Part shown: positions 1 to 19,164 of the stretch, one piece after another | Layout: the number at the start of each line of letters is the position of its first letter | Position numbering within the stretch: the first letter of the stretch is position 1 | Program-made: the position numbers and the translations under genes | The notes under the pieces: model-generated | Database searches by the model: none | The model's input: only the letters and a program-made list of their open reading frames with translations | What the model was told of the DNA's origin: nothing | Virus record (IMG/VR): IMGVR_UViG_2690315742_000006 | Location: 1-22,975 of that record | Reading direction: 5' to 3' (one strand) | DNA length: 22,975 nt | From: a virus | Taxonomy: Duplodnaviria > Heunggongvirae > Uroviricota > Caudoviricetes

Positions 1-132
1 AGAGCCGTTGAAGCCAGAACTGTGGACCACATCATTCCGAAAGCTCATGGTGGCACGGATGCAGACAGTAACCTGCAGAGTCTGTGCTGGCCCTGTCATA
101 AAGCAAAAACAGCGCGCGAACGCATCAATTGA
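1..132 (+). CDS. HNH endonuclease, C-terminal fragment (5' end outside window)
   Basis: Frame 1 reads ...VDHIIPKAHGGTDADSNLQSLCWPCHKAKTARERIN*, i.e. an HNH motif with His, Asn and a CxxC-like C-x2-H pair; stop TGA at 130-132; sits directly upstream of the terminase genes. Confidence 0.7.
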   Translation, partial: RAVEARTVDHIIPKAHGGTDADSNLQSLCWPCHKAKTARERIN

Positions 133-279
133 TAACAGTTCCCATCTGTAGGGGAGGGGCGGGTCAAATCTCTGCAACCCTGGCTGCTCAGTACCGCCGC
201 CTGACCCTTCCTCACATCGCCGCAGGTTCGAAAACTTTTTTTGGAAATGTGAACAAACGATTGATAGGTAAGACCGATT

Positions 280-762
280 ATGTCAGGACCTCCGAAAACC
301 CCGCCACGCCTGCATTTGATACGAGGCAACCCCTCAAAGCGCCCCGTTAAAGACTCAAAAAAAACCGCTAAAAAGGATGAAAAAGGTCTCCCTAAAATTC
401 CGCAGCATTTAGGGGCACAGGGGAAGTACTGGTTCAGGCGAATGGCGGAAGAGCTGAATGCGGAAGGGATCATTTCTCAGCTTGATGCGCGTGCACTCGA
501 GTTGCTGGTGGAAGCCTATACCGAATATCGGCATCACTGCGAAACACTCGATGTTGAGGGGTATACCTACCGCACGGAAACGCAGAGCGGTGATGTACTG
601 ATTAAGGCGCACCCCGCGGCGGCAATGAAAGCGGATGCCTGGAAGCGGATCCGGGCAATGCTTGCAGAGTTTGGTATGTCACCGGCAAGCCGGGCTAAAG
701 TAAATATTGCCGGACCGGATGATGTTGATCCGCTGGCGGAGCTTTTAAAAGCGAGAGACTGA
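280..762 (+). CDS. Terminase small subunit (P27-like)
   Basis: 160-aa basic N-terminus (KRPVKDSKKTAKKDEKG); immediately precedes large terminase with ATGA stop/start overlap at 760-764. Confidence 0.7.
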   Translation: MSGPPKTPPRLHLIRGNPSKRPVKDSKKTAKKDEKGLPKIPQHLGAQGKYWFRRMAEELNAEGIISQLDARALELLVEAYTEYRHHCETLDVEGYTYRTETQSGDVLIKAHPAAAMKADAWKRIRAMLAEFGMSPASRAKVNIAGPDDVDPLAELLKARD

Positions 763-2519
763 TGGCAAAAGTGGCTGACGGGATCCGCTACGCCGAACGT
801 GTTGTTGCAGGAGAAATTGTTGCTGGCGAATTTGTCCGCCTGGCCTGCCAGCGTTTTCTTGATGATCTAAAGTACGGCGAAGAGCGGGGGATTTATTTCA
901 GTGAACCACGTGCGCAGCACATCCTGAATTTCTACAAATTTGTGCCTCATGTAAAAGGGGCGCTGGCAGGCCAGCCTATTGAGTTGATGGACTGGCATGT
1001 ATTTATCCTCATTAATATTTTTGGTTTTGTCATTCCGCTGGTCAATGAAGAGACCGGGGAAGTTGTCATGCGCAGCGATGGCAGCGGGCGCCCGGTGATG
1101 GTGCGCCGGTTCCGGACAGCATACAACGAAGTTGCCCGTAAAAACGCAAAATCAACCCTGTCATCGGGTATCGGTCTGTATATGACGGGGGCAGATGGTG
1201 AAGGCGGTGCTGAGGTGTATTCAGCCGCAACCACGCGTGACCAGGCCAGAATCGTGTTTGAAGACGCCAAAAATATGGTCAGAAAAGCCCGGTCGACACT
1301 CGGGCGGTTGTTTGATTTCAACAAGCTGGCGATTTACCAGGAGCAGAGCGCATCAAAATTTGAACCGCTTTCTTCGGATGCAAACAACCTGGATGGTCTG
1401 AACATCCACTGCGCCATTATTGATGAGCTGCATGCACATAAAACCCGTGACGTGTGGGACGTTCTGGAAACGGCAACCGGTGCCCGTCTGCAGTCCCTTT
1501 TATTTGGTATCACCACGGCAGGGTTTAACAAGGAAGGGATTTGTTACGAGCAGCGTGATTATGCCATCAAGGTATTGCGTGGCTATAACAGCGACGTGGA
1601 GGGCGCTGTAAAAGACGACTCCTACTTTGCGATTATTTACACCCTCGATGAGGGAGATGATCCGTTTGATGAAACGGTCTGGCAGAAAGCGAATCCTGGC
1701 CTGGGCATCTGTAAACGCTGGGATGATCTGCGTCGTCTGGCGAAAAAAGCGAAAGAACAGGTCTCTGCGCGGGTGAATTTTTTTACCAAACACATGAATG
1801 TGTGGGTAACAGCAGAGTCTGCCTGGATGGACATGATTAAGTGGGAGAAGTGCGAATACATTGCCCCGCGACATGAGCTGAAAACGTATCCCATGTGGGT
1901 CGGCGTTGACCTTGCTCATAAGATTGATATCTGTGCGGCGGCAAAACTCTGGCGAACGGATAACGGGCATGTTCATGCCGATTTTAAATTCTGGCTCCCG
2001 GAAGGACGGCTGGAACGATGCTCGCGGCAGCAGGCAGAACTTTACCGGAAGTGGGCGGAGATGGATAAGCTGATTCTGACGGATGGTGATGTTATCGATC
2101 ATGCTCAGATAAAAAGTGACTTACTGGAATGGATTGGTGGTGAAAACCTCAGGGAACTGGGATTTGACCCGTGGAGCGCGATGCAGTTCAGCCTAGCACT
2201 GGCTGAAGAAGGGATACCGCTGGTGGAGGTTCCGCAGACGGTTCGCAATCTGTCAGAGGCCATGAAGGAAACGGAATCACTGGTCTATGCCGGACGTTTC
2301 CATCACAGCAATCATCCGGTCATGAACTGGATGATGTCTAACGTTACGGTAAAACCGGACAAAAACGACAATATCTTCCCGAATAAATCCACGCTGGAAG
2401 CCAAAATCGACGGCCCTGTTGCGATGTTTACAGCAATGAGCCGGATGCTGGTCAATGGTGGTGAACCGGAGCCGGATCTGTCTGAACATCTGGTCAGCGT
2501 GGGCATCCGCTCGCTTTAA
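762..2519 (+). CDS. Terminase large subunit
   Basis: 585-aa ORF between small terminase and portal; size and position typical of TerL. Confidence 0.85.
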
Positions 2520-2530
2520 CCGAGGTCATT

Positions 2531-2713
2531 ATGTTTCTGATAATTCTCGCGCCACTGGTGGGCGTGCTGGGTGCGCTTTTGCTGGCGTATGGTGCCTGGC
2601 TGATTTATCCCCCGGCGGGTTTTGTTGTTGCCGGGGCGCTGTGCCTGTTCTGGTCGTGGCTGGTGGCGCGATATCTCGACCGTACACAGCCGTCTGTCGG
2701 CGGAGGTAAATAG
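2531..2713 (+). CDS. Small hydrophobic protein, two predicted transmembrane helices, function unknown
   Basis: 60 aa, [49 protein letters not shown]; GAGG 5 nt upstream of ATG; stop TAG 2711-2713 overlaps the portal GTG start by 1 nt. Confidence 0.5.
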
Positions 2714-3954
2714 TGTTCTTTTCGGGATTATTTCAACGAAAAAGTGACGCGCCGGTGACCACGCCAGCAGAGCTGGCGGATGCTATCGGGCTGTCATACG
2801 ACACCTATACCGGAAAGCAGATCAGCAGCCAGCGGGCCATGCGACTGACGGCGGTTTTTTCCTGCGTCAGGGTGCTGGCAGAGTCGGTCGGGATGTTGCC
2901 CTGCAATCTGTATCACCTGAACGGCAGCCTGAAACAGAGAGCCACCGGCGAACGTCTGCATAAGCTGATCTCCACGCATCCCAATGGATATATGACGCCG
3001 CAGGAGTTCTGGGAGCTGGTGGTCACCTGTCTGTGCCTGAGGGGAAACTTTTACGCCTACAAAGTGAAAGCATTTGGCGAAGTGGCTGAACTGCTGCCCG
3101 TCGATCCTGGCTGTGTGGTACCGAAGCTTAACAGTAGCTGGGAGCCGGTCTATCAGGTCACATTCCCGGACGGCTCCACGGATGTACTGAGCCAGGAGGA
3201 TATCTGGCATGTGCGCACGCTGACGCTGGACGGACTGGTGGGGCTGAATCCCATCGCCTATGCCCGCGAGGCAATATCGCTGGCGGCAGCGACCGAAGAG
3301 CACGGGGCCAGACTGTTCAGCAATGGTGCGGTGACGTCCGGTGTGTTGCGTACAGAGCAGACGCTGTCAGATCAGGCTTACGAGCGCCTGAAGAAAGATT
3401 TTGAGGAGCGTCACACCGGGCTTGGCAATGCTCACCGCCCGATGATCCTTGAGATGGGGCTGGACTGGAAGTCGATGGCGCTGAACGCCGAGGACAGCCA
3501 GTTCCTGGAAACCCGCAAGTTTCAGCTTGAAGAAATCTGTCGTCTGTTTCGGGTGCCGTTGCACATGGTGCAGAACACCGATCGCGCCACCTTCAACAAT
3601 ATCGAAGAGCTGGGGCTGGGATTTATCAACTATTCACTGGTGCCGTATCTGACCCGCATTGAGCAGCGGATCAACACCGGACTGGTACGAAAAAGTAAGC
3701 AGGGCGTTTATTACGCCAAATTTAACGCCGGGGCGTTACTGCGCGGGGATATGAAGTCCCGTTTTGAAGCCTACGCCACCGGGATCAACTGGGGAATTTA
3801 CTCTCCTAATGACTGCCGCGACCTGGAAGATATGAATCCGCGTCCCGGTGGTGATGTCTATCTCACCCCGATGAACATGACCACGAAACCCTCCGATGGC
3901 AGTAAAGCCGGTAAGCAGAAGGATAACGCCAATGCAGACGAAACAACGTCTTGA
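2713..3954 (+). CDS. Portal protein (HK97-type)
   Basis: 413-aa ORF in canonical position after TerL; GTG start at 2713 with GGAGG at 2702-2706. Confidence 0.85.
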   Translation: MFFSGLFQRKSDAPVTTPAELADAIGLSYDTYTGKQISSQRAMRLTAVFSCVRVLAESVGMLPCNLYHLNGSLKQRATGERLHKLISTHPNGYMTPQEFWELVVTCLCLRGNFYAYKVKAFGEVAELLPVDPGCVVPKLNSSWEPVYQVTFPDGSTDVLSQEDIWHVRTLTLDGLVGLNPIAYAREAISLAAATEEHGARLFSNGAVTSGVLRTEQTLSDQAYERLKKDFEERHTGLGNAHRPMILEMGLDWKSMALNAEDSQFLETRKFQLEEICRLFRVPLHMVQNTDRATFNNIEELGLGFINYSLVPYLTRIEQRINTGLVRKSKQGVYYAKFNAGALLRGDMKSRFEAYATGINWGIYSPNDCRDLEDMNPRPGGDVYLTPMNMTTKPSDGSKAGKQKDNANADETTS

Positions 3955-4582
3955 TGTACCGCTGAGTCTGAAATCTGTCAGTGACTCCGGTGAGTTTGAA
4001 GGGTATGGCTCCGTCTTTGGTGTAAAGGACAGCCACGATGATGTGGTGATGTCCGGGGCATTTGCTGCTTCCCTGCGGGCGTGGAGTGACAGAAAAGCGT
4101 TACCTGCGCTGCTCTGGCAGCACCGCATGGATGAACCCATCGGTGTTTACACCGAAATGAAGGAAGACGATGTCGGGCTTTACGTCAGGGGACGGTTGCT
4201 TATTGATGATGATCCCCTCGCAAAACGCGCACATGCACACATGAAGGCCGGTTCGTTAACCGGCCTTTCTATTGGGTACGTCCTGAAAGACTGGGAATAC
4301 GACCGGAGCAAAGAAGCCTTTCTGCTGAAAGAAATCGACCTCTGGGAAGTCAGCCTGGTGACGTTCCCGTCTAACGACGAGGCGCGGATCAGCGACGTCA
4401 AGAACGCACTGGCCCGCGGGGAAATCCCCGAACAGAAAAAAATCGAAAGAGTCCTGCGTGATGTCGGACTCTCCCGTACCCAGGCCAAAGCATTCATGGC
4501 CGGGGGCTATGGCGCACTGTCCCTGCGCGACGCTGAGGATGTGGGCTCTGCACTGAATGCACTGAAAAATCTGAACTTCTAA
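3932..4582 (+). CDS. Prohead maturation protease (HK97 family)
   Basis: Motifs GYGSVFGVKDSHDDVVMSGAF and WQHRMDEPIGV typical of HK97 prohead proteases; ATG 3932 has AAGGA upstream; the in-frame ATG at 3896 is an alternative start. Confidence 0.8.
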   Translation: MQTKQRLDVPLSLKSVSDSGEFEGYGSVFGVKDSHDDVVMSGAFAASLRAWSDRKALPALLWQHRMDEPIGVYTEMKEDDVGLYVRGRLLIDDDPLAKRAHAHMKAGSLTGLSIGYVLKDWEYDRSKEAFLLKEIDLWEVSLVTFPSNDEARISDVKNALARGEIPEQKKIERVLRDVGLSRTQAKAFMAGGYGALSLRDAEDVGSALNALKNLNF

Positions 4583-4596
4583 TCAGGAGAAATACG

Positions 4597-5802
4597 ATGG
4601 CGGTTGATATTAAAGATGTCGAACAGGTCGCGCAGGAGCTGCAGCAGAAGTTTGACGACTTCAAAGCAAAGAACGACAAGCGCGTTGAGGCGATTGAGCA
4701 GGAAAAAGGCAAACTTGCCGGGCAGGTGGAAACCCTGAACGGAAAACTCAGCGAGCTGGAAAATCTCAAAAGCGATCTTGAAAAAGAGCTGCTTGAGCTG
4801 AAACGTCCGGCAGGTGGTGCGCAAAATAAACTGGCCACCGAGCATAAAGAAGCGTTTGTGGGCTTCCTGCGTAAAGGCCGTGAAGATGGTCTGCGCGATC
4901 TGGAGCGTAAGGCATTACAGGTGGGCACCGATGAAGACGGCGGCTATGCCGTGCCGGAAGAACTGGATCGCAACATTCTCAATCTGCTGAAAGATGAAGT
5001 GGTGATGCGCCAGGAAGCCACGGTGATCACCGTTGGCGGTTCCGACTACAAAAAACTGGTGAATCTGGGCGGCACGGCTTCCGGATGGGTTGGCGAGACT
5101 GACGCGCGCTCCCAGACTGCCACCTCAAAACTGGGACTGATTGAACCTTTCATGGGGGAAATCTACGGTAACCCGCAGGCCACCCAGAAAATGCTGGATG
5201 ATGCTTTCTTCAACGTGGAGGCCTGGATCAACAGCGAGCTGGCAACCGAATTTGCCGAACAGGAAGAAATTGCCTTTACCACCGGCGATGGTACCAAGAA
5301 GCCGAAAGGGTTCCTGGCGTATGAGTCCACTGATGAAACCGACAAGGTCCGGGCGTTCGGCAAACTTCAGCATATTGTATCCGGCGAAGCGACGGCAGTG
5401 ACCGCAGATGCCATTATCAAACTGATTTACACGCTGCGTAAGGCACACCGCACTGGCGCGAAGTTCATGATGAACAACAACAGCCTGTTTGCCATCCGTC
5501 TGCTTAAAGACAGCGAGGGTAACTATCTGTGGCGTCCGGGGCTGGAACTGGGGCAGCCGTCCTCTCTGGCGGGTTACGGTATCGCTGAAAACGAACAGAT
5601 GCCGGATATCGCCGCTGATGCGAAAGCCATTGCATTTGGTAACTTCAAACGGGGTTACACCATCGTTGACCGTATCGGCACCCGCATTCTGCGTGACCCG
5701 TACACCAATAAACCGTTTGTCGGTTTTTATACCACCAAGCGCACCGGCGGGATGCTGGTCGATTCGCAGGCCATCAAACTGCTGAAGATTGCAGCAGCGT
5801 AA
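4597..5802 (+). CDS. Major capsid protein (HK97 fold) with N-terminal coiled-coil scaffold (delta) domain
   Basis: 401 aa; first ~100 residues are a heptad-rich charged coiled coil (QELQQKFDDFKAKNDKRVEAIEQEKGKLAGQVETLNGKLSELENLKSDLEKELLELK) and no separate scaffold gene is present; GGAGA RBS. Confidence 0.85.
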   Translation: MAVDIKDVEQVAQELQQKFDDFKAKNDKRVEAIEQEKGKLAGQVETLNGKLSELENLKSDLEKELLELKRPAGGAQNKLATEHKEAFVGFLRKGREDGLRDLERKALQVGTDEDGGYAVPEELDRNILNLLKDEVVMRQEATVITVGGSDYKKLVNLGGTASGWVGETDARSQTATSKLGLIEPFMGEIYGNPQATQKMLDDAFFNVEAWINSELATEFAEQEEIAFTTGDGTKKPKGFLAYESTDETDKVRAFGKLQHIVSGEATAVTADAIIKLIYTLRKAHRTGAKFMMNNNSLFAIRLLKDSEGNYLWRPGLELGQPSSLAGYGIAENEQMPDIAADAKAIAFGNFKRGYTIVDRIGTRILRDPYTNKPFVGFYTTKRTGGMLVDSQAIKLLKIAAA

Positions 5803-5810
5803 TCATTCAG

Positions 5811-5836
5811 GGGGCGCAGAAGTGCGCCCCTGTTCT
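5811..5836 (+). terminator. Stem-loop downstream of capsid gene (partial terminator or mRNA stabiliser)
   Basis: GGGGCGCA gaag TGCGCCCC, 8-bp GC-rich stem with 4-nt loop at 5811-5830, followed by a weak T-tract (tgttct). Confidence 0.5.
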
Positions 5837-5852
5837 GACAGGTGAAAGAATC

Positions 5853-6041
5853 ATGATCCTGAAACAAGATCTGAAATGGTCACCGGACGGTATGCGTGTT
5901 GAGATTATTCGGGCCGGTGAGTATGAAGATAAAGAATTACCCGAACGGGTACGCGAAATTGCCACTGCAGCTGGGATTGTCTCTGATAAGAGAACACCTG
6001 TTGCGCGGGGGGCTGATAAGTCTAAAAAACAGCATTCATAG
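5853..6041 (+). CDS. Hypothetical small protein (62 aa)
   Basis: ATG at 5853 with AGGTG 8 nt upstream; charged hydrophilic sequence MILKQDLKWSPDGMRVEIIRAGEYEDKELPERVREIATAAGIVSDKRTPVARGADKSKKQHS; no family recognised. Confidence 0.4.
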   Translation: MILKQDLKWSPDGMRVEIIRAGEYEDKELPERVREIATAAGIVSDKRTPVARGADKSKKQHS

Positions 6042-6052
6042 AGGTTGCCCAA

Positions 6053-6358
6053 ATGATGCCCACTCTGGAAGAGCTTCGTGTTCAGTGCCGGATTGATGAT
6101 GACAATGAACAGGAGAATTCTCTTCTTATGATGTATCTGGCTGCTGCCAGGGAAGAGGCTGAAAAGTTTTTAAACCGGACGCTTTACGATGAAACTGTTT
6201 CTGAGCAGGATACGACCGGGCTTGTAATAACACCTCTGATAAAACTGCGTCTTATGCAACTGGTTGGCTACTGGTACGAGAACAGGGAAATGCAGGATGC
6301 AGTGCCTGATTTTTTCTATACCGGACTGCGGATGTATCGATTTCATCCCGGAACATAG
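6053..6358 (+). CDS. Head-tail connector protein (gp6-like)
   Basis: 101 aa, first gene after the capsid gene; LEELRVQCRIDDD...YLAAAREEAEKFL resembles gp6-type connectors. Confidence 0.6.
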   Translation: MMPTLEELRVQCRIDDDNEQENSLLMMYLAAAREEAEKFLNRTLYDETVSEQDTTGLVITPLIKLRLMQLVGYWYENREMQDAVPDFFYTGLRMYRFHPGT

Positions 6359-7151: not shown

Positions 7152-7492
7152 GAGAGACCACACTGTATTCCCTGCTGTCTCAACTGGCCGGAGGACAGGT
7201 TTATCCTTATGTGGTCCCGCTGACGGAGGGAAAGCCTGCGGTATCTCCGCCATGGCTGGTATTTTCTGTGGTGTCTGACACTGCGTCTGATGTGCTTGAT
7301 GGTCAGGCTGAATCCAGAATTACCGTGCAGATCGATGTCTGGGCAACAGTACCTGATGACGCAGATGATATCCGTGAGCAGGCGCTTGATGCGGTAAGGC
7401 AACTTGCACCCTCCGTTATTTCTAAAACTCAGGGTTATGATCCTGATTCCCGTCTGAGCAGAGCCACGCTTGAATTTCAGGTAATAGCCTGA
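7148..7492 (+). CDS. Tail terminator-like protein
   Basis: 114 aa; ATGA overlap with upstream gene; position immediately before the major tail gene. Confidence 0.5.
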   Translation: MRETTLYSLLSQLAGGQVYPYVVPLTEGKPAVSPPWLVFSVVSDTASDVLDGQAESRITVQIDVWATVPDDADDIREQALDAVRQLAPSVISKTQGYDPDSRLSRATLEFQVIA

Positions 7493-7512
7493 GGTCGTTA
7501 ATGATTTTACCC

Positions 7513-15017: not shown

Positions 15018-18000
15018 ATGGGTAAAGGCAGCAGTAAGGGGCATACCCCGCGCGAAGCGAAGGACAACCTGAAGTCCACGCAGTTGCTGAGTGTGATCGA
15101 TGCCATCAGCGAAGGGCCGATTGAAGGTCCGGTGGATGGATTAAAAAGCGTGCTGCTGAACAGTACGCCAGTGCTGGACAGTGAGGGGAATACCAACATC
15201 TCTGGCGTCACGGTGGTGTTCCGGGCAGGTGAGCAGGAGCAGACACCGCCTGAGGGGTTTGAATCCTCCGGCTCCGAGACGGTGCTGGGTACGGAAGTGA
15301 AATACGACACGCCGATCACCCGGACCATCACGTCTGCAAACATCGACCGTCTGCGTTTTACCTTCGGTGTGCAGGCTCTGGTGGAAACCACCTCAAAAGG
15401 GGACCGGAATCCATCGGAAGTCCGCCTGCTGGTTCAGATACAACGTAACGGTGGCTGGGTGACGGAAAAAGACATCACCATTAAGGGCAAAACCACCTCG
15501 CAGTATCTGGCATCGGTAGTGGTGGATAACCTGCCGCCGCGCCCGTTCAATATCCGGATGCGCAGGATGACACCGGACAGCACCACAGACCAGTTGCAGA
15601 ACAAAACGCTCTGGTCGTCATACACCGAAATCATCGATGTGAAACAGTGCTACCCGAACACAGCACTGGTCGGCGTACAGGTGGACTCGGAGCAGTTCGG
15701 CAGTCAGCAGGTGAGCCGTAATTATCATCTTCGCGGGCGCATTCTGCAGGTGCCGTCGAACTATAACCCGCAGACGCGGCAATACAGCGGTATCTGGGAC
15801 GGAACGTTTAAGCCAGCATACAGCAACAACATGGCCTGGTGTCTGTGGGATATGCTGACCCATCCGCGCTACGGCATGGGGAAACGTCTTGGTGCAGCCG
15901 ATGTGGATAAATGGGCGCTGTATGTCATCGGCCAGAATTGCGACCAGTCGGTGCCGGACGGCTTTGGCGGCACGGAGCCGCGCATCACCTGTAATGCCTA
16001 CCTGACCACACAGCGTAAGGCGTGGGATGTTCTCAGTGATTTCTGCTCGGCGATGCGCTGTATGCCGGTATGGAACGGGCAGACGCTGACGTTCGTGCAG
16101 GACCGACCGTCGGATAAGGTGTGGACCTATAACCGCAGTAATGTGGTGATGCCGGATGATGGCGCGCCGTTCCGCTACAGCTTCAGCGCCCTGAAGGACC
16201 GCCATAATGCCGTTGAGGTGAACTGGATTGACCCGAATAACGGCTGGGAGACGGCGACAGAGCTTGTTGAAGATACGCAGGCCATTGCCCGTTACGGTCG
16301 TAATGTCACGAAGATGGACGCCTTTGGCTGTACCAGCCGGGGGCAGGCACACCGAGCCGGGCTGTGGCTGATTAAAACGGAGCTGCTGGAAACGCAGACC
16401 GTGGATTTCAGCGTGGGCGCAGAAGGGCTTCGCCATGTCCCGGGCGATGTCATTGAAATCTGTGATGATGACTATGCGGGGATCAGCATCGGCGGGCGTG
16501 TGCTGGCGGTGAACAGCCAGACCCGGACACTGACGCTCGACCGTGAAATCACGCTGCCATCTTCCGGCACCACGCTGATAAGCCTGGTTGACGGACAGGG
16601 GAATCCGGTCAGCGTGGAGGTCCAGTCCGTCACCGACGGCGTGAAGGTGAAAGTGAGCCGGGTTCCTGACGGCGTTGCCGAGTACAGCGTGTGGGGGCTG
16701 AAGCTGCCGACGCTGCGCCAGCGCCTGTTCCGCTGTGTGAGTATCCGTGAGAATGACGACGGCACGTATGCCATCACCGCCGTGCAGCATGTACCGGCAA
16801 AAGAGGCCATCGTGGATAACGGGGCGCACTTTGACGGTGACCAGAGCGGCACGGTGAATGGTGTCACGCCGCCAGCGGTGCAGCACCTGACCGCCGAAGT
16901 CACCGCAGACAGCGGGGAATATCAGGTGCTGGCGCGCTGGGACACGCCGAAGGTGGTGAAGGGCGTGAACTTCCTGCTTCGCCTGACCGTGGCTGCGGAT
17001 GATGGCAGTGAACGGCTGGTCAGCACGGCCCGGACGACGGAAACCACATACCGCTTCAGGCAACTGGCGCTGGGAAATTACAGGCTGACAGTCCGGGCGG
17101 CAAATGCCTGGGGGCAGCAGGGCGATCCGGCATCGGTATCGTTCCGGATTGCCGCACCGGCAGCGCCGTCGCGGATTGAGCTGACGCCGGGCTATTTTCA
17201 GATAACCGCCACGCCGCATCTTGCCGTTTATGACCCGACGGTACAGTTTGAATTCTGGTTCTCGGAAAAGCGGATTGCGGATATCAGGCAGGTTGAAACC
17301 ACAGCCCGCTATCTTGGCACGGCGCTGTACTGGATAGCTGCCAGTATCAATATCAAACCGGGCCATGATTATTATTTTTATATCCGCAGTGTGAACACCG
17401 TTGGCAAATCGGCATTTGTGGAGGCTGTTGGTCAGCCGAGTGATGATGCGTCCGGCTATCTGAATTTTTTCAAAGGAGAGATAGGGAAAACCCATCTGGC
17501 TCAGGAGCTGTGGACGCAGATTGATAACGGTCAGCTTGCGCCTGACCTGACTGAAATCAGGACGTCCATAACGGATGTCAGCAATGAAATAACACAGACC
17601 GTCAATAAGAAACTGGAAGACCAGAGTGCAGCGATCCAGCAGATACAGAAGGTTCAGGTTGATACAAATAATAACCTGAACAGCATGTGGGCAGTGAAGC
17701 TGCAGCAGATGCAGGACGGACGCCTTTATATTGCGGGTATCGGTGCCGGTATTGAGAACACCCCCGACGGCATGCAGAGTCAGGTGCTGCTGGCTGCAGA
17801 CCGGGTGGCATTTATTAACCCGGCGAATGGTAACACCACTCCTGCACTGGTCACACAGGGCGGACAGACGTTTATTAATGAGGCGCTGATCAAGTTCCTT
17901 ATTGCTCCCACGATTACCAGTGGTGGCAATCCTCCGGCATTCTCCCTGACACCTGACGGAAAGCTGACTGCTAAAAATGCGGATATCAGTGGCAGTGTGA

Positions 18001-18497
18001 ATGCGAACTCCGGGACGCTCAACAACGTCACGATTAATGAGAACTGTCAGATTAAGGGGAAACTGTCAGCCAATCAGATTGAAGGCGATATTGTCAAAAC
18101 AGTGGGCAAAGCTTTCCCCCGGGACTCCCGTGCACCGGAACGGTGGCCATCAGGGACCATTACCGTCAGGGTTTATGACGATCAGCCGTTTGACCGGCAG
18201 ATTGTTATTCCGGCGGTGGCATTCAGCGGCGCTAAACATGAGAGAGAGCATACTGATATTTACTCCTCATGCCGTCTGATAGTGCGGAAAAACGGTGCTG
18301 AAATTTATAACCGTACCGCGCTGGATAATACGCTGATTTACAGTGGCGTTATTGATATGCCTGCCGGTCACGGTCACATGACGCTGGAGTTTTCGGTGTC
18401 AGCATGGCTGGTAAATGACTGGTATCCCACAGCAAGTATCAGCGATTTGCTGGTTGTGGTGATGAAGAAAGCCACCGCAGGCATCAGTATCAGCTGA
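15018..18497 (+). CDS. J: Host specificity / central tail fibre protein J
   Basis: 1159 aa; N-terminus [54 protein letters not shown] recognisable as lambda gpJ; GGAG RBS. Confidence 0.9.
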
Positions 18498-18564: not shown

Positions 18565-19164
18565 ATGCGTAAAGTTTGTGCAGCCATTTTGTCCGCAGCC
18601 ATCTGTCTGGCCGTATCCGGTGCGCCTGCATGGGCGTCTGAGCAGCAGGCCACACTGAGCGCAGGGTATCTTCATGCCCGTACGAACGCTCCCGGCAGCG
18701 ATAATCTGAACGGGATTAACGTGAAATACCGTTATGAGTTTACGGACACGCTGGGGCTGATTACGTCATTCAGCTATGCAGGAGACAAGAATCGCCAGCT
18801 TACCCGTTACAGCGATACCCGCTGGCATGAAGATTCCGTTCGTAACCGCTGGTTCAGCGTAATGGCGGGGCCGTCTGTGCGCGTGAATGAATGGTTCAGC
18901 GCGTATGCGATGGCGGGTGTGGCTTACAGCCGTGTGTCGACTTTCTCCGGGGATTATCTCCGCGTAACTGACAACAAGGGGAAAAAGCACGATGTGCTGA
19001 CCGGAAGTGATGACGGTCGCCACAGCAACACGTCTCTGGCGTGGGGAGCTGGCGTGCAGTTTAACCCGACCGAATCCGTGGCCATTGATGTCGCTTATGA
19101 AGGCTCCGGCAGTGGTGACTGGCGCACTGACGGGTTCATCGTGGGTGTTGGTTATAAATTCTGA
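18565..19164 (+). CDS. lom: Lom-family (Ail/Lom) outer membrane beta-barrel protein
   Basis: Signal peptide [24 protein letters not shown]; C-terminus ...[25 protein letters not shown] ends in the aromatic residue typical of outer-membrane beta-barrels and resembles lambda Lom; GAGAGG RBS. Confidence 0.85.

Follow-up and report, generated by a model that had tools for sequence, protein, structure and literature searches.

The window analyzed here is a stretch of 22,975 nucleotides (nt) of viral DNA (Caudoviricetes; IMG/VR record IMGVR_UViG_2690315742_000006, positions 1 to 22,975). Between its genes for the large terminase (TerL) and the portal protein lies a small open reading frame (ORF) on the plus strand, at positions 2531 to 2713, and we will refer to this ORF and its product as X. 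The sequence and the ORF list both place its ATG at 2531-2533 and its TAG at 2711-2713, giving 60 codons for a predicted two-helix membrane protein. X is a real phage gene under purifying selection. On its profile match and gene order, it is a member of an already catalogued, functionally uncharacterized family of small phage proteins (phrog_502) and the orthologue of ST64B sb3 and phiKO2 gene 3. Taken jointly, the identity, selection, position, and coupling of X are conclusions in which we have very high confidence.

The TerL gene (762 to 2519, plus strand; Pfam TerL_ATPase, E 1.9e-27, and TerL_nuclease, E 4e-52) is the first in a predicted coupled chain of TerL, X, and portal. It ends with TAA at 2517-2519, and X starts after a gap of 11 nt. 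Within this gap the Shine-Dalgarno (SD) sequence GAGG (2522 to 2525, plus strand), read from the sequence and named in the initial annotation of the locus, stands 5 nt before the ATG. It is kept in most enterobacterial relatives, as ccgagg or ctgagg, and as agagg in one (L010). On the other side the gap is −1 nt. The portal gene (2713 to 3954, plus strand; Pfam Phage_portal PF04860, E 4.4e-108), the constant downstream partner of X, begins with a GTG (2713-2715) that shares G2713 with the X stop codon and so forms TAGTG at 2711 to 2715 on the plus strand. This one-base overlap had also been claimed in the initial annotation, and the portal start is backed by TAATG or TGATG at the equivalent site in relatives.

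X and the portal gene overlapped at all 28 distinct junctions, by one base at 26 (TAATG, TGATG, or TAGTG) and by four bases at two. The portal SD sequence, GGAGG (2702 to 2706, plus strand), lies inside X codons 58-59, and the portal ribosome-binding site at the end of X reads GGNGGAGGT. An SD-like tetramer was present in the last X codons at 26 of the 28 junctions. In most relatives X ends in GG(E/D/K), encoded by GGAGGT or GGGGGT just ahead of the overlapping start of the portal gene; the C-terminal Gly-Gly is invariant because these codons double as the portal ribosome-binding site. In practice, deletions of X must therefore spare the portal ribosome-binding site in its last codons. The 5′ side of X took one of two forms in relatives, either a start about 11 nt after TerL with the SD sequence in the gap or a 7-nt overlap with TerL. 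Translational coupling, proposed at the outset for this locus, thus has its stop/start overlap architecture in every relative examined.

Selection on X was evident at the codon level. The ratio of nonsynonymous to synonymous substitution rates (dN/dS) in the X frame was 0.14-0.27 against relatives at dS of ~0.9-1.5, compared with 0.8-3.8 in the shifted plus-strand frames of the same alignments. Among 33 distinct 183-nt alleles, variability was highest at codon position 3, followed by positions 1 and 2 (pi of 0.231, 0.146, and 0.099, respectively), and protein length was held at 55-65 amino acids in the family. GC content at third codon positions (GC3) was 0.56 for TerL, 0.64 for X, and 0.68 for portal, which puts X between its neighbors. 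The higher total GC of X arises at codon positions 1 and 2 through its Ala, Gly, Leu, and Val content and does not reflect foreign origin. The grand average of hydropathy (GRAVY) of 1.22 placed X in the top 0.7% of 1143 stop-free 60-residue windows taken from six frames of the whole window and in the top 0.8% of 5000 nucleotide shuffles. A chance ORF or a composition artefact was ruled out by dN/dS, codon periodicity, and neighbor-like GC3, and with it the two outcomes that the initial annotation had named as fatal to its call, namely a lack of conservation and a hydrophobicity that is a by-product of composition. Two overlapping ORFs were also rejected as real genes, one at 2455-2709 on the plus strand, because dN/dS in the shifted plus-strand frames was at least 0.8, and one at 2529-2687 on the minus strand, where periodicity fits the X frame and dN/dS covered plus-strand frames only. 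A search of the region against Rfam returned no family at E up to 1, and a reading of the region as an RNA element was rejected on that result.

X matched the phrog_502 profile ("membrane protein") with an E value of 2.1e-27, residues 1-55 aligning to positions 3-57 of 58. The features of this family were all found in X, including a full-length profile match, two helices in ~55-65 residues with a (Y/F)PPAG-type turn, and the TerL/portal slot. The catalogued members phrog_502, ST64B Sb3, the phiP27 protein, and phiKO2 gp3 have the same length, two hydrophobic helices, slot, and overlap with the portal start as X, and we found no difference between them and X. The category given to the family in PHROGs is "moron, auxiliary metabolic gene and host takeover." Clustered at 90%, the homologues of X numbered 164, and profile searching among 1.8 billion representatives gave 386 clusters at 50% identity (E ≤ 0.001), most of them 50-70 residues long, that share the pattern G-x2-G...YGAW(L/M)I(Y/F)PPAG(F/Y)I..G..C(L)..(W)S...(R/K). 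No match to X was found among Pfam, NCBIfam, or PADLOC models or PDB sequences, the last of these leaving X without a relative among solved structures, those of virions included. A fold search of BFVD matched other uncharacterized small phage proteins, none at E ≤ 0.001.

The same or a near-identical gene is annotated in vB_EcoM-606R7 and in the Shiga toxin (Stx) phage phi467. Of the sequenced free phages that have this head module, the latter (LN997803, L110) is the nearest to the window, at 98.8% identity over 2300-2950. With a 651-bp megablast query, the 3′ two-thirds, comprising X and the portal start, matched ST64B (sb3), phiP27, and SfI, SfII, and SfIV, as well as 1946 of 5426 complete E. 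coli genomes, about a third. Use of tblastn added phiKO2 (gp3), PY54, Yersinia YeP phages, and Marinobacter phage AS1. All named hosts of X are Proteobacteria (Enterobacterales, Marinobacter, Neptuniibacter, and Alcaligenaceae), and marine metagenomes were also among its contexts. Two records carry Gram-positive labels, a metagenome-assembled genome named "Bacillota bacterium" (JAEWTL010000102, L003) and the 1764-bp OR844959 ("Enterococcus phage Efm 3-10"). Both hold an E. coli-type TerL-X-portal segment 93-96% identical to the window, and the labels are probably the result of contamination or mis-binning. Frameshifted X copies, with one half in frame and the rest out, were found at L011:4001-4179 (Shigella flexneri CP182557) and in proteins P0089, P0096, and P0106, and the portal is truncated after 139 residues in loci L002 and L004; these cases are consistent with decaying prophages.

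Public records call X a hypothetical or membrane protein, or, in phiP27, a "putative integral membrane protein." Four of them (ON470580, ON470584, ON470603, and PQ793804) use "head-tail joining protein W," which appears to be a positional transfer from lambda.

The check for conservation at the same position that had been called for in related prophages was run, and X occupied the TerL/portal slot in related phages as well as in prophages. The order TerL-X-portal was present in every readable neighborhood, comprising 15 genome loci, nine distant proteins on contigs, and phiKO2. These contexts span X identities from 93% down to ~33%, with X overlapping the portal start or ending within a few bases of it, and the downstream gene was a PF04860 portal in all distant contexts checked. 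Where the flank sufficed, the full block read HNH, small terminase (TerS), TerL, X, portal, protease, and capsid, the protease being of the S49 type or, as in the window, of the S78 type. The capsid protein of the window module has the HK97 fold. The initial annotation had regarded a membrane protein gene as unexpected among packaging genes, and this did not hold, as such a gene is common in this class of head modules.

Presence at this slot is optional. HK97 has no gene there, its gp2 stop overlapping its gp3 start. To describe this variation, 80 viral contigs with related portals (43-100% identical) were reduced to 38 distinct modules. In 25 of these, a TerL/portal interval of 134-299 nt (mostly 185-208 nt) held X or an X-like two-helix gene. 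The remaining 13 lacked X, the end of TerL and the start of the portal gene being no more than 15 nt apart, and had portals 47-70% identical to that of the window. No unrelated gene occupied the site in any of the 38 modules. Ordered by portal identity, X was present at 71-100%, mixed at 55-70% and at 43-49%, and present again at ~33-39%. This patchy presence fits better with old residence and repeated loss than with recent acquisition, a preference drawn from the pattern itself. Judged by these comparisons, X is a frequent but dispensable cassette of HK97-type head modules that exactly fills the TerL/portal junction.

A divergent X-like subfamily, included in the count of 25, was seen in L084, L088, L091, L094, L102, L079, L086, and L109, where a small ORF runs up to the portal start. 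Its members carry a hydrophilic extension at the N terminus and the motif PD(L/I)VG(V/M)xG...RGLW, and most of them end with RGG(R/G), giving the pattern "PDLVGVLG...RGLW...RGGR." The X profile matched these proteins weakly (E values of 1e-3 to 1e-7) or not at all.

X followed the portal more closely than TerL. Relative to the window copy, X identity correlated with portal identity at a Spearman rho of 0.88 and with TerL identity at 0.40 (n = 38). A mosaic breakpoint lies in the conserved 3′ end of TerL (...GIRSL*; 2500 to 2519, plus strand), where megablast matches begin at query position 201/202, corresponding to window 2500/2501. Past ~2501 the window matches phages of the ST64B, SfI/II/IV, and phiP27 types, with X 92-93% and portal 98-100% identical and the downstream block of X, portal, protease, and capsid 92-100% identical as a whole, compared with 35-37% identity for TerL. 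Of the 1946 matching E. coli genomes, 289 also have the TerL type of the window over at least 80% of the query. The X-head block is joined in the window to a lambda-like non-contractile tail (HK97/lambda tape measure, gpL, and gpJ) and in ST64B to Mu-like tail proteins. As the block occurs with differing TerL types and tails, X belongs to the head/portal side and not to one terminase or tail.

Neither promoter-like nor terminator-like sites set X apart from its neighbors. Positions 1-6200 held four promoter-like sites (4.2 expected from shuffles) and eight terminator-like sites (6.9 expected), none of them flanking X. A weak promoter-like match (9/12) at 2516-2544 overlaps the start of X, and transcription from it would miss part of the ORF. 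Without its own promoter or terminator, X should therefore be made from the late transcript; in phi467 the late region reads Q-stx-tRNA-S-R-Rz-HNH-TerS-TerL-X-portal. From this anatomy we infer that X is a late gene translated in a coupled chain from TerL through X to portal. Ribosomes would pass along this chain by termination-reinitiation, and X would be expected at the same time as the portal and in similar low amounts. Morons are described as independent transcription units with a promoter and a terminator, a GC content that deviates from that of their neighbors, and activity in the prophage (PMC3594210). X shares with them its presence in some and absence from other close relatives; a classical moron was rejected, since X lacks a dedicated promoter or terminator and its GC3 does not deviate.

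The two membrane helices and strong hydrophobicity noted in the initial annotation were borne out by hydropathy analysis and structure prediction, which agreed on a hairpin. The hydrophobic segments span residues ~1-25 and 29-47, and the last 13 residues are polar. AlphaFold2, run with a 37-sequence alignment, predicted a helical hairpin (helices 2-25 and 27-52) with a mean predicted local distance difference test score (pLDDT) of 77.5. Predicted transmembrane helix 1 (residues 2-25; 2534 to 2605, plus strand) had Kyte-Doolittle 19-residue means up to 2.7 and coincides with the AlphaFold2 helix; its face of G11, G14, and G21 is invariant or nearly invariant in the alignments. The motif W23-L-I-Y-P-P-A-G30 (2597 to 2620, plus strand), consisting of invariant or near-invariant columns in alignment A2, is a predicted tight turn at the periplasmic face. 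It is the most conserved motif of X and is recognizable in members down to 33% identity. Predicted transmembrane helix 2, based on hydropathy and AlphaFold2, covers residues 29-47 (2615 to 2671, plus strand) and ends at R47. It has a small-residue face of G30, G35, C38, and S42, with G35 invariant and S42 nearly so in the broad alignment. Residues 48-60 (2672 to 2710, plus strand) form a short, net-basic tail, variable in alignments A1 and A3, that ends in Gly-Gly-Lys and is predicted to be cytoplasmic.

Charges after helix 2 are R47, R51, and K60 against D50, the turn is uncharged, and N-terminal extensions in some relatives are strongly basic, for example RQRRALRRKARALRLQR. Because of the basic C-tail, the basic N-extensions in relatives, and the uncharged turn, X is predicted to have both termini in the cytoplasm (N-in/C-in) and the YPPAG turn in the periplasm. 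Five family members (P0152, P0162, P0175, P0243, and P0267) are tandem fusions of two hairpins, with 102-122 residues and four helices, and one of them, P0152 (L026:127-495), is encoded directly upstream of a PF04860 portal. An AlphaFold2 model of a tandem-fused member had four helices with a pLDDT of 70 and a predicted template modeling score of 0.43, values of modest confidence that support the secondary structure but not the packing. Such fusions imply that the hairpins work side by side, and together with the glycine faces and the YPPAG turn they suggest that X self-associates in the membrane.

What X does has to be weighed from this anatomy. A literature search, whose coverage did not extend to the original phiKO2 and ST64B genome papers, returned no functional study or discussion of X. 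We tentatively favor, with low confidence, a reading in which X, though dispensable, assists the head/packaging module from within the membrane. One family kept at one site over deep divergence and the coupling of X to the portal speak for it. Its hairpins would pack against one another in the inner membrane through their conserved Gly/Ser faces, and X might serve as a membrane platform that localizes or nucleates the portal/procapsid initiation complex or the packaging complex. Such a platform would be akin to the membrane-bound gp20 portal initiator of T4 assisted by gp40 and YidC, while being unrelated to the T4 system. The T4 gp20 initiator is membrane-bound, depends on gp40, and contacts YidC, making gp40, with host YidC, a phage membrane factor of portal/prohead initiation (PMC9958956). 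The likeness of gp40 to X is one of function only. Genes 40 and 20 lie apart in T4, whereas X adjoins the portal gene, and HK97-type proheads are not known to form on membranes. T4 gene 40 is only conditionally required, and X is likewise dispensable in evolutionary terms.

Several observations weigh against a role of X in head assembly or packaging. X is absent from HK97 and from 13 of the 38 related modules and is therefore not essential for portal function. Its best-conserved residues lie in the membrane and the periplasmic turn, and the C-tail, its only cytoplasmic part, is variable, which leaves little conserved surface for binding the portal in the cytoplasm; in exposing almost nothing conserved to the cytoplasm, X also differs from T4 gp40. 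The correlation between X and portal may merely reflect 180 nt of physical linkage. The portal N-terminal motif MFxxGLFxRKS was considered as a docking site for X and rejected, since portals from modules lacking X keep related forms of it (LFSRKS, MFGRKS, or LGFKS). A bolder version of the same idea, which we regard as improbable, is that X hairpins form an inner-membrane ring through their glycine faces that templates or anchors the portal dodecamer, so that procapsid initiation, and perhaps packaging, would take place on the membrane in a large HK97-type clade of Proteobacteria. If so, these phages would have a membrane-bound assembly step of a kind so far documented only for T4-like phages, and lineages that lost X, HK97 among them, would have switched to nucleation in the cytoplasm.

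Two other readings, each of which we judge unlikely, place the action of X in the membrane itself. X might be a late holin-, antiholin-, or viroporin-like hairpin that oligomerizes in the inner membrane and tunes membrane potential and lysis timing, unrelated to assembly. Class II holins and pinholins such as S21 and the phi467 "Lysis protein S" share with X small size, two transmembrane helices, predicted N-in/C-in topology, glycine-rich faces, and late expression. The small-residue faces and tandem fusions of X imply oligomers, its conserved parts are intramembrane, and it is dispensable and patchy, as lysis-timing modifiers usually are; in phi467 it would be expressed with the late genes from ~2.7 kb downstream of the lysis cassette. 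Nevertheless, X never adjoins an endolysin gene, its C-tail is short and weakly charged, and in phi467 a separate cassette upstream of HNH-TerS already supplies a pinholin of the S21 type together with lysozyme and Rz. Homology is lacking as well, as hhalign gave a probability of 0.9% for X against the phi467 pinholin and no Pfam holin family was found for X or any of the 37 aligned members; membership in a holin family was rejected on these grounds. X also stays with the portal where TerL is exchanged, as the lysis region presumably is too, and coupling to TerL and portal predicts a low copy number. The same conserved intrabilayer residues in a small hairpin would suit a protein that binds and inhibits a host inner-membrane protein by helix-helix contacts, acting as an exclusion or counter-defense factor much as small regulators of membrane proteins do, or superinfection exclusion (Sie) proteins such as HK97 gp15 or T4 Imm. 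The optional occurrence of X among related phages and the PHROGs category agree with this, and HK97 gp15 is a precedent, being a small membrane Sie protein within a structural operon, between structural genes, and like X present in only some relatives (PMC3594210). Yet gp15 comes with a dedicated promoter and terminator and is active in the prophage state, whereas X has neither element, is chained to TerL and portal, and occupies one site across deep divergence. Lacking also the deviant GC of a moron, X should be silent in the lysogen, where exclusion pays. One family at one site through portal divergence to ~31-35% identity is unlike a horizontally roaming moron, and the association of the X block with both lambda-like and Mu-like tails makes a target tied to one DNA-injection route unlikely. 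No PADLOC defense family matched at E up to 1, and a known defense protein was rejected accordingly.

The remaining explanations lean on the position of X. It might be a virion pilot or ejection protein that is loaded at the portal and inserts into the recipient inner membrane for DNA entry, or a positional analogue of lambda gpW. X is tightly linked and coupled to the portal and occupies the lambda W slot between A and B, some GenBank records giving it that name, and gpW has a similar length (68 residues compared with 60). However, gpW is a soluble virion protein, and X is a predicted membrane hairpin with a GRAVY of 1.22 that should insert co-translationally into the membrane of the producing cell. 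An hhalign comparison of X with gpW gave a probability of 0.8% over one aligned column, no solved virion structure matches X, the window already encodes gp6-like connector and head-completion proteins, and X is dispensable in related phages. We consider a virion role very unlikely, and gpW identity, as annotated in some records, was rejected for lack of sequence or profile similarity. Finally, the peptide might be irrelevant and X a mere translational coupler or spacer that sets portal expression, or a chance ORF. The portal SD sequence within X, the stop/start overlap at all junctions, and the related phages that couple TerL directly to portal without X would suit this; the purifying selection on the amino acid sequence, the persistence of a specific motif and Gly/Ser positions to 33% identity, the two-helix architecture kept in the most distant subfamily, and the lack of an Rfam family at the region make it extremely unlikely.

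Other features of the window were recorded alongside X. The longest ORF for the S78 protease (3896-4582) overlaps the portal 3′ end by 59 nt (window 3896-3954), and the protease annotated in phi467 has 651 nt, 11 codons fewer; where translation truly begins is therefore uncertain, with an internal ATG as a candidate. A 62-residue ORF at 5853-6041, between the capsid and gp6-like connector genes, had no Pfam match, and its phi467 equivalent (7306-7494) is annotated as hypothetical. A 625-residue antisense ORF (15618-17495, minus strand) lies wholly inside the gpJ-like gene (15018-18497) and probably represents a shadow frame poor in stops. A gene for an Ail/Lom outer-membrane protein (18565-19164; PF06316, E 9e-121) is flanked by the genes for the gpJ-like tip protein and the tail fiber, the classical position of the lambda lom moron. 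In phi467, stxA and stxB (15718-16953) lie just upstream of the lysis cassette; with the same head module in that phage, the head module of the window is shared with Stx-converting phages.

X belongs to a very widespread family and sits in one of the most studied phage modules, yet has no name and no Pfam model. Its carriers include the Stx-converting phages phiP27 and phi467, Shigella serotype-converting phages, and the telomere phages phiKO2 and PY54. To what was catalogued, this analysis adds purifying selection, the behavior of X as a cassette that one site either holds or lacks, its linkage with the portal and not with TerL, the portal SD sequence within its last codons, and evidence from tandem fusions for oligomerization, along with the rejection of the gpW, holin-family, and moron labels. 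No anomalous mechanism is in evidence for X. If X links head assembly or packaging to the membrane, the textbook view of HK97-type assembly as purely cytoplasmic would change; if it is a lysis or host-membrane modulator, it would represent a new small-protein family acting there. The results on selection, optional presence, linkage, and coupling make a concrete and cheap genetic question of what had been a "hypothetical protein."

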